DNA of 64,000 nucleotides. Source: Escherichia coli (GTDB lineage Bacteria; Pseudomonadota; Gammaproteobacteria; Enterobacterales; Enterobacteriaceae). Positions 58,529 to 58,721 of this stretch are shown here, piece by piece. The notes beneath the pieces are model-generated. The model saw only the letters and a list, made by a program, of their open reading frames with translations, ran no database searches and was not told the origin of the DNA. The stretch lies in NCBI RefSeq assembly GCF_003334765.1, contig NZ_QOWT01000012.1; one strand, 5' to 3'. Position 1 is the stretch's first letter. The number at the start of each line of letters is the position of its first letter. Made by a program: the position numbers and the translations under genes.

Positions 58529-58721
58529 TTTCGGTTGTCCTTATGAAGTGATGGTTTCAGCCTAACATGTCTTTATCCGTTTTAAGCGCCAACAAACGAC
58601 CGTTTTCTGGCACCTCCCAATCGCACGCTTTCACACTGTTGGAAAAATAGCCTTGGCTTTTCTGGCAGGCCATCCTAATGTTGGCCTCGTTTTCTGGCAG
58701 GGGTCAGATGGGGAGATAACA

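Follow-up and report, generated by a model that had tools for sequence, protein, structure and literature searches.

A 113-bp array of half-sites upstream of a small serine recombinase gene of Escherichia coli is, with a probability that we estimate at about 70%, a Tn3-like res which serves the adjacent recombinase both in resolution and in autoregulation. The array is located in a stretch of 64,000 nucleotides that was analysed as a whole and is referred to as the window. An earlier note on this DNA had pointed to three direct repeats ahead of the gene and had offered a res-like array of subsites, an autoregulatory operator, or both as explanations. The comparative evidence supports the last of these, namely that the array probably combines the two functions.

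The repeated sequence TTTTCTGGCA occurs on the plus strand at 58603-58612, 58658-58667, and 58690-58699 (start-to-start distances of 55 and 32 bp), which reproduces the coordinates and spacing given in the earlier note. When extended to 12 bp, copies 1 and 3 both read CGTTTTCTGGCA while copy 2 reads GCTTTTCTGGCA. Four exact occurrences of TTTTCTGGCA are found on the two strands of the 64-kb window (expectation from dinucleotide shuffles: 0.13 ± 0.37), and 0 of 100 shuffles yielded four copies. The fourth occurrence, at 53890, is within the ahr gene, where it is isolated and has no partner. The three repeats are thus real and do not result from chance.

The complete array covers 58587-58699 (113 bp) and ends with copy 3, 22 bp ahead of the ATG at 58722, close to the distance of about 20 bp that had been reported before. 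It can be divided into three subsites (Table 1). The three copies are not whole units and correspond only to the gene-proximal half-sites. Copy 1 is the right arm of site I, the left arm of which is at 58587-58598, and the two arms match at 9 of 12 positions. Copy 2 is the right half of site II, and the halves of this site are inverted relative to each other. Copy 3 is the right half of site III, where the left half has the direct orientation and is weak in the window (ATGTTGGCC, 7/9). A search for further copies, as the earlier note had envisaged, thus came up with inverted partner halves of copies 1 and 2 and with a degenerate direct partner of copy 3; a second site I was not found nearby. 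Because there is no further inverted copy nearby, the expected reaction is resolution or deletion, not inversion.

Table 1. Features of the res-like array, the recombinase gene, and the surrounding island (window coordinates)
Feature	Position	Strand	Description
Left attachment repeat	54567..54595	+	3' end of tRNA-Leu(CAA) (54507-54591)
Tyrosine integrase, 650 aa	54640..56592	+	Backbone partner of the recombinase in these islands
Site I, proposed crossover site	58587..58612	+	CGCCAACAAACG-AC-CGTTTTCTGGCA; 26 bp, imperfect 12-2-12 palindrome
Central dinucleotide AC of site I, presumed 2-bp staggered cut	58599..58600	+	12-2-12 symmetry; breakpoints 2-6 bp leftward in 15 locus pairs
Site I-II spacer, 24 bp	58613..58636	.	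Length conserved; no conserved bases in the consensus
Site II, accessory, 31 bp	58637..58667	+	Left half TGTTGGAAAAAT (58637-58648), 7-bp spacer, right half GCTTTTCTGGCA (58656-58667)
Putative -35, TTGGCT	58653..58658	+	Inside the site II spacer
Site III, accessory, 25 bp	58675..58699	+	Degenerate left half CTAATGTTGGCC (58675-58686), 1 bp, right half CGTTTTCTGGCA (58688-58699)
Putative -10, TAATGT	58676..58681	+	17 bp after the -35, overlaps the site III left half; block TCCTAWT conserved
Shine-Dalgarno-like GGGAG	58711..58715	+	6 nt ahead of the ATG; read from the sequence
Small serine recombinase gene, 186 aa	58722..59282	+	Pfam Resolvase 1.4e-36, C-terminal HTH_7 2.2e-5
Xre-type HTH gene	60844-61401		Co-occurs with recombinase and integrase in about 20-24 loci
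Right attachment repeat	61881..61909	+	L001 1705-1733 matches both repeats

A scan of one genome per species identified 76 loci with relatives of the recombinase. These are spread over Enterobacterales, Pseudomonas, Burkholderia, and many Betaproteobacteria (Duganella, Janthinobacterium, Massilia). The 53 loci with a complete upstream region were analysed; their recombinases are 60-92% identical. Within E. coli, DNA matching 58400-59300 (array plus recombinase gene) is present in 724 of 5426 complete genomes (~13%). The earlier note had made its reading depend on whether homologous loci with the same type of recombinase also have the motif, and the array is found at fixed offsets in 53 loci. 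Site I has the 12-2-12 layout and is palindromic in 53/53, with arms that match at 11-12 of 12 positions in many Betaproteobacteria. Near-perfect sites are those of Duganella (TGTTAGAAAACG-AA-CGATTTCTAACA) and Massilia aurea (TGTTAGAAAACG-TC-CGTTTTCTAACA).

For the remainder of the array, the site I arms of each locus were used as a half-site probe for that locus, and offsets were counted from the left end of site I. Against a background of 0.45 hits per offset, half-sites are found in reverse orientation at offset 0 and in forward orientation at 25 (site I), in reverse orientation at 49/50 (38/53 loci) and forward at 80/81 (47/53 loci; site II), and in forward orientation at 99 (22/53 loci) and 111/112 (45/53 loci; site III). 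The distance from the left end of site I to the ATG varies (125-154 bp), and the internal geometry is constant.

The outer hexamer of the half-sites differs between groups and changes at all subsites together. Enterobacterales and Pseudomonas have CTGGCA or CCGGCA, most Oxalobacteraceae have CTAACA or CCAACA, and another group has TGAACA. Compared with the site I hexamer of the same locus, the hexamers of sites II and III carry 2.1 mismatches on average; against the site I hexamers of the other classes, the average is 5.6. The C-terminal helix that corresponds in the alignment to the gamma-delta resolvase recognition helix (ARSTVYK) varies along with the hexamer: SRAT(I/V)AA goes with CTGGCA, SRANILG with CTAACA, and SRA(S/T)(I/V)MR with TGAACA. 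The positions of this helix that we assume to contact DNA are those which we take from the 1GDT structure. This co-variation between hexamer and HTH is the strongest computational indication that the repeats are the binding sites of this very recombinase. We consider it very probable that they are recombinase half-sites to which the recombinase binds.

A half-site in reverse orientation at offset 82 is restricted to the TGAACA lineage, which has an inverted pair, TGTTCA-N7-TGAACA. At the same place, the window has the 19-bp palindrome GGCCATCCTAATGTTGGCC (58668-58686) with 5-bp arms, which spans the -10 region. The palindrome and the matching pair suggest that site III may hold a third half-site in some lineages. 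Janthinobacterium sp. LM6 has two recombinase/res modules (L052 and L062), the half-sites of which belong to the CTAACA and TGAACA classes. A pair of loci is likewise present in two further genomes (L028/L032 and L038/L059). In L080, a second "recombinase" proved to be a serine recombinase of an unrelated type and was rejected. Four loci that carry the labels Collinsella MAG, Martelella alba, Bacillota MAG, and Chryseobacterium sp. (L007, L010, L019, and L021) contain copies of the Enterobacterales type, with 84-100% protein identity and the same flanks. These copies are probably due to contamination or mis-binning rather than to wide transfer.

The protein itself is annotated merely as "recombinase family protein" elsewhere. 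Its best relatives of solved structure are gamma-delta resolvase (1e-25, with an alignment that covers the full length), Gin invertase (6.5e-23), and Tn3 resolvase (2.5e-22), with Sin being distant (1.9e-14). Residues R8, S10, R70, and R73 are invariant among 12 homologues, as is the motif DRLGRD. No NCBIfam model claims the protein, the top match being the Mpi invertase family with 98 bits (cut-off: 272 bits), and PADLOC does not list it. The ATG at 58722 is also the start chosen by RefSeq for an identical gene. A longer ORF of 209 aa (TTG 58653 to 59282, plus strand) is open in frame through sites II and III, and several database entries call extended forms of the recombinase (208-242 aa). 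Given its Shine-Dalgarno sequence, the ATG at 58722 is more likely to be the start than the TTG at 58653.

A weighted scan of the whole region placed the -35 of the best sigma-70-like -35/-10 pair at offset 65-68 in 48 of 53 loci. A scan of 58400-59400 with the strict sigma-70 consensus revealed no promoter, and Rfam returned nothing in 58300-58900. With the promoter elements as listed in Table 1, copy 2 is positioned within the promoter spacer and copy 3 over the expected transcription start. Since the promoter is inside sites II and III, the recombinase is likely to repress its own gene, as is the case in Tn3 and SGI1.

The literature searched holds no description of this recombinase family or of its site. 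Among characterized systems, Tn3 provides the reference for geometry. Tn3 resolvase recognizes 12-bp motifs, which are separated by 1 bp in site III (25 bp), by 3 additional bp in site I (28 bp), and by 9 additional bp in site II (34 bp) (PMC9943657), and the length of the Tn3 res is given as 114 bp (PMC2602789). The family described here shares with Tn3 a small serine recombinase, a res directly upstream of its gene, and, as read from the sequence, three dimer-sized subsites built from 12-bp motifs. The total length is 113 bp compared to 114 bp, site III has 25 bp in both systems, and the accessory sites overlap the promoter. In Tn3, the spacers between the sites are 22 and 5 bp, which is consistent with the total of 114 bp. 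With these spacers, the centre-to-centre distances in Tn3 are 53 bp (I-II) and 34.5 bp (II-III); those in the present array are 52.5-53 and 34.5-35 bp. The scaffold as a whole agrees with that of the Tn3 res, although the individual subsites are not alike.

Differences to Tn3 are equally evident. Site I has 26 bp rather than 28 bp, site II has 31-32 bp rather than 34 bp, and the intervals between the sites are 24 and 6-7 bp. In site III, the left half is detectable in 22 loci and is directly oriented in all of them, whereas Tn3 has inverted repeats. The half-site sequence is unrelated to that of Tn3 (TGTCYNNTA). Identity between the recombinase and the Tn3 or gamma-delta resolvase is about 35-40%, as judged by eye. 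The residues of the regulatory (2-3') interface of Tn3 resolvase (R2, R32, K54, and E56) correspond to A2, Y32, K56, and R58, with A2 being invariant in the family. Because R2, R32, and E56 are not conserved, the synaptic complex may be built differently from that of Tn3. Moreover, the island is devoid of a Tn3-family DDE transposase and of the terminal inverted repeats of about 38 bp that characterize such transposons, and such a transposase is also absent from the flanks of the 76 loci. A plasmid record (H40) labels its match to the recombinase "Tn3 family transposase", which we take to be a labelling oddity. As subsite sizes, site III orientation, and interface residues differ, the system resembles Tn3 in manner and does not have all of the defining features.

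Judged by layout, the closest published analogue is Res (S027)/res from the integrative island SGI1 (Salmonella genomic island 1), where the resolvase gene is associated with a 107-bp res of three boxes (28, 30, and 25 bp, with spacers of 22 and 2 bp) that overlaps its own promoter; binding by Res was demonstrated by EMSA and recombination in plasmid assays, and multimers of the island were eliminated faster with an intact Res/res system (PMC12217951). In both cases, a resolvase with an upstream three-box res is encoded on an integrative island together with a tyrosine integrase. From the oligonucleotides listed in its supplement, boxI of SGI1 can be approximately reconstructed as TGTTCAACAA(A)CC-AC-CATTTTCTTAACA, and in this approximation it resembles site I in the core AACAAAC...AC...TTTTCT. 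The half-sites of boxII and boxIII, in the same approximate reconstruction, appear to have the opposite orientation relative to the gene. The N-terminus of SGI1 Res (MNQKLATLG) is unlike that of the recombinase analysed here, and SGI1 has replication and mobilisation genes, neither of which is evident in the 7.3-kb island.

Site I also has features in common with the crossover sites of the invertases Hin, Gin, Cin, and Pin (hix and gix), which have 26 bp, a 12-2-12 layout, and a non-palindromic central dinucleotide. The linker GRPPK is a further likeness, and Gin is among the best relatives of solved structure. Unlike in these systems, site I lacks a partner in inverted orientation and does not border an invertible segment. 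Next to it are two accessory recombinase sites (II and III), which speak against a Fis-bound enhancer. The direct orientation of the site III halves has a parallel in site II of Sin, where the half-sites are in direct repeat (PMC9943657). Sin and beta differ in that a host bending protein (HU/IHF) is involved, whereas the present array has three recombinase sites and no obvious site for such a protein.

Independent of the geometry, comparisons between loci single out site I as a boundary. In E. coli and its relatives, identity on the right side of site I can be as high as 98-100% between loci whose left sides are unrelated: the left side carries DUF1643 in the window, a gene for a 304-aa protein in L001 and L002, and genes for an AAA ATPase and a UvrD helicase in ES8 and Pseudocitrobacter. 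The left arm of site I differs according to the island (CGCCAACAAACG, TGTCATCAATCG, and TGTAAGAAATCG), yet it keeps the character of a half-site. In 24 locus pairs, identity is at least 93% (93-100%) rightward of the site I centre and at random level (0.15-0.37) leftward of it. The loss of identity occurs 2-6 bp leftward of the centre in 15 pairs; in the other 9, it occurs 11-15 bp leftward. These breakpoints are circumstantial evidence for crossover at site I, the footprint of which they may represent. The sharp boundary could also partly reflect selection on the site instead of crossover.

One locus, L001, has an organization that fits such an event. It consists of the tRNA-Leu with its att, the sequence that follows attR in the window, unique DNA, a hybrid site I, and the right half of the island from the window up to attR. 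This is the structure that a res x res deletion between tandem islands would be expected to produce. Among the complete E. coli genomes, no parental island was found in which one of the alternative left arms is paired with its own right arm. The locus of ABWA45 (L085), a candidate parent of the L001 hybrid, was dismissed as uninformative since it diverges 11 bp outside of site I into a truncated restriction gene. A relationship between the 304-aa gene of L001 and the gene at the end of the ES8 island was also considered, and BLASTP revealed none.

For this recombinase system, the sequences directly show the repeats, their conserved geometry, the concerted change of DNA and HTH, the promoter position, and the breakpoints at site I; from these we infer binding, catalysis, a topological filter, and repression. 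Dimers of the recombinase would bind to the three subsites, and in site I the central AC would be the point of strand cleavage and exchange. When two directly repeated res are present on one supercoiled molecule, the accessory sites would intertwine and activate the dimers bound at site I, a topological filter that would permit deletion (resolution) only. The enzyme would act on tandem islands at a tRNA gene or on multimers of the island after its excision. Where the two islands are different, resolution would leave a hybrid in which left cargo from one is combined with right cargo from the other. Binding to sites II and III would at the same time repress the recombinase gene, since its promoter is within these sites.

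Two other readings retain the recombinase as the binding protein. If the array were an operator and nothing else, the recombinase or a domesticated derivative of it would repress its own promoter, and possibly that of a divergent gene, without any recombination. Copies 2 and 3 would fit, since they coincide with the promoter spacer and the presumed start of transcription, as would the lack of conservation at the Tn3-type regulatory interface. Such an operator does not account for site I, which precedes the -35 by about 40 bp and is the best conserved and most symmetric element, with a fixed 2-bp centre. Nor would it explain why the whole family retains the catalytic Ser10 and the arginines without exception or why homology breakpoints cluster at the site I centre; in addition, the variable DNA on the left of site I offers no conserved divergent gene to be regulated. 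We regard this reading as improbable. Slightly less probable still is an enzyme that acts like an invertase or integrase and uses site I, together with a partner site that is degenerate or far away, for the inversion, insertion, or excision of cargo, in which case sites II and III would have a regulatory role only. The 26-bp, 12-2-12 site I with its non-palindromic central AC would be as expected, and its inner part (AAAC.-NN-.GTTT) is like that of hix and gix sites. The Gin-like linker and the top NCBIfam match, far below cut-off as it is, point in the same direction, and differing left arms such as TGTCATCAATCG and TGTAAGAAATCG would be generated by recombination with secondary sites. On the other hand, accessory sites with Tn3 geometry are typical of resolvases. 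Apart from three marginal matches at chance level, a search for another palindrome like site I, with a threshold of 17 of 24 positions, was negative within ±6 kb in the 53 loci (625 kb of flanks) and in the 64-kb window, which argues against an inversion switch.

It is very improbable that the repeats belong to something else altogether, be it another protein of the island (as arm-type sites of the integrase or as sites for the Xre-type HTH protein), iterons, or a chance cluster. An integrase and an HTH gene do co-occur with the recombinase in about 20-24 loci. However, the array is invariably next to the recombinase gene, even in the roughly 30 loci of Betaproteobacteria where neither an integrase nor an HTH gene is found within 6 kb, and its sequence co-varies with the HTH of the recombinase. 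Iterons are disfavoured because none of the island genes was recognized as a replication initiator and because the 55/32 spacing is unlike theirs, and the enrichment over dinucleotide shuffles excludes chance. The Tn3-like res with resolution and autoregulation thus continues to be our preferred reading.

The island in the window has 7.3 kb (54567-61909), is inserted at the 3' end of tRNA-Leu(CAA), and is delimited by a direct repeat of ~29 bp. Its genes are, in this order, the integrase, NIPSNAP, a frameshifted DUF1643, the recombinase, DUF4062, a gene for a 183-aa protein, and the Xre-type HTH. The 650-aa integrase is encoded at most 6 kb from the recombinase in about 20 loci. Beyond attR there is a second island remnant which lacks an integrase, and this indicates that leuX carries islands in tandem. 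The DUF1643 gene (58063-58530, minus strand), which is divergent from the recombinase gene, is frameshifted in the window. An identical copy in L003 has been flagged as frameshifted by RefSeq, and the gene is intact (155 aa) in O157:H7 (L005). The DUF4062 gene (59296-60141, plus strand) matches the PADLOC candidate defence family PDC-S60 (5.8e-27), and a gene at 62439-63263 (plus strand) matches the PADLOC candidate PDC-S32 (5.6e-104).

A resolvase with a three-subsite, autoregulating res is a textbook principle; the probable example described here is located on a small integrative island with candidate defence genes. A survey of E. coli defence islands notes only integrase/recombinase islands of unknown mobility. 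For a family that extends across Gamma- and Betaproteobacteria, a probable recombination site and operator is now defined to the base. Site I marks the border between two variable cargo compartments with candidate anti-phage genes (the PDC-S60-like DUF4062; the AAA ATPase and UvrD helicase of ES8), and the res offers a testable mechanism for the reshuffling of cargo in small "integrase-only" islands. Hybrids of Tn3- and Tn21-family transposons that arose via recombination at res are a precedent for cargo swapping.

A more far-reaching view is that res and recombinase form the hinge of widespread two-compartment islands (integrase, cargo A, res-recombinase, cargo B, HTH) and exchange the left and right cargo of islands that are in tandem or co-integrated, with the classes CTGGCA, CTAACA, and TGAACA letting several elements coexist in one genome without cross-recombination. 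This is conceivable, and we advance it tentatively, being inclined to doubt it in this generality. If it were true, the cargo that is swapped would largely consist of candidate anti-phage genes, and the recombinase would have a role beyond that of a housekeeping multimer resolver. The specificity classes, with their matched sites and recognition helices, could serve as orthogonal resolvase/site pairs.

Parts of the island are also found on plasmids. Fragments with res-recombinase and neighbouring genes are located between copies of IS26 and IS1 on the E. coli plasmids L083 and L084 (IncF, IncHI1B), with DUF1643 being present on L084 only. A native plasmid resolution system had been considered because of plasmid relatives with 91% identity; this was rejected, as these are IS26/IS1-captured fragments of the same island. 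It is by IS-mediated capture that the res-recombinase module is reaching plasmids. In AHB10 (L003), an insertion sequence is integrated into site II after the position that corresponds to 58655 in the window, and it has removed the recombinase gene. The last 88 bases of the window (63913-64000) match the end of this insertion sequence.
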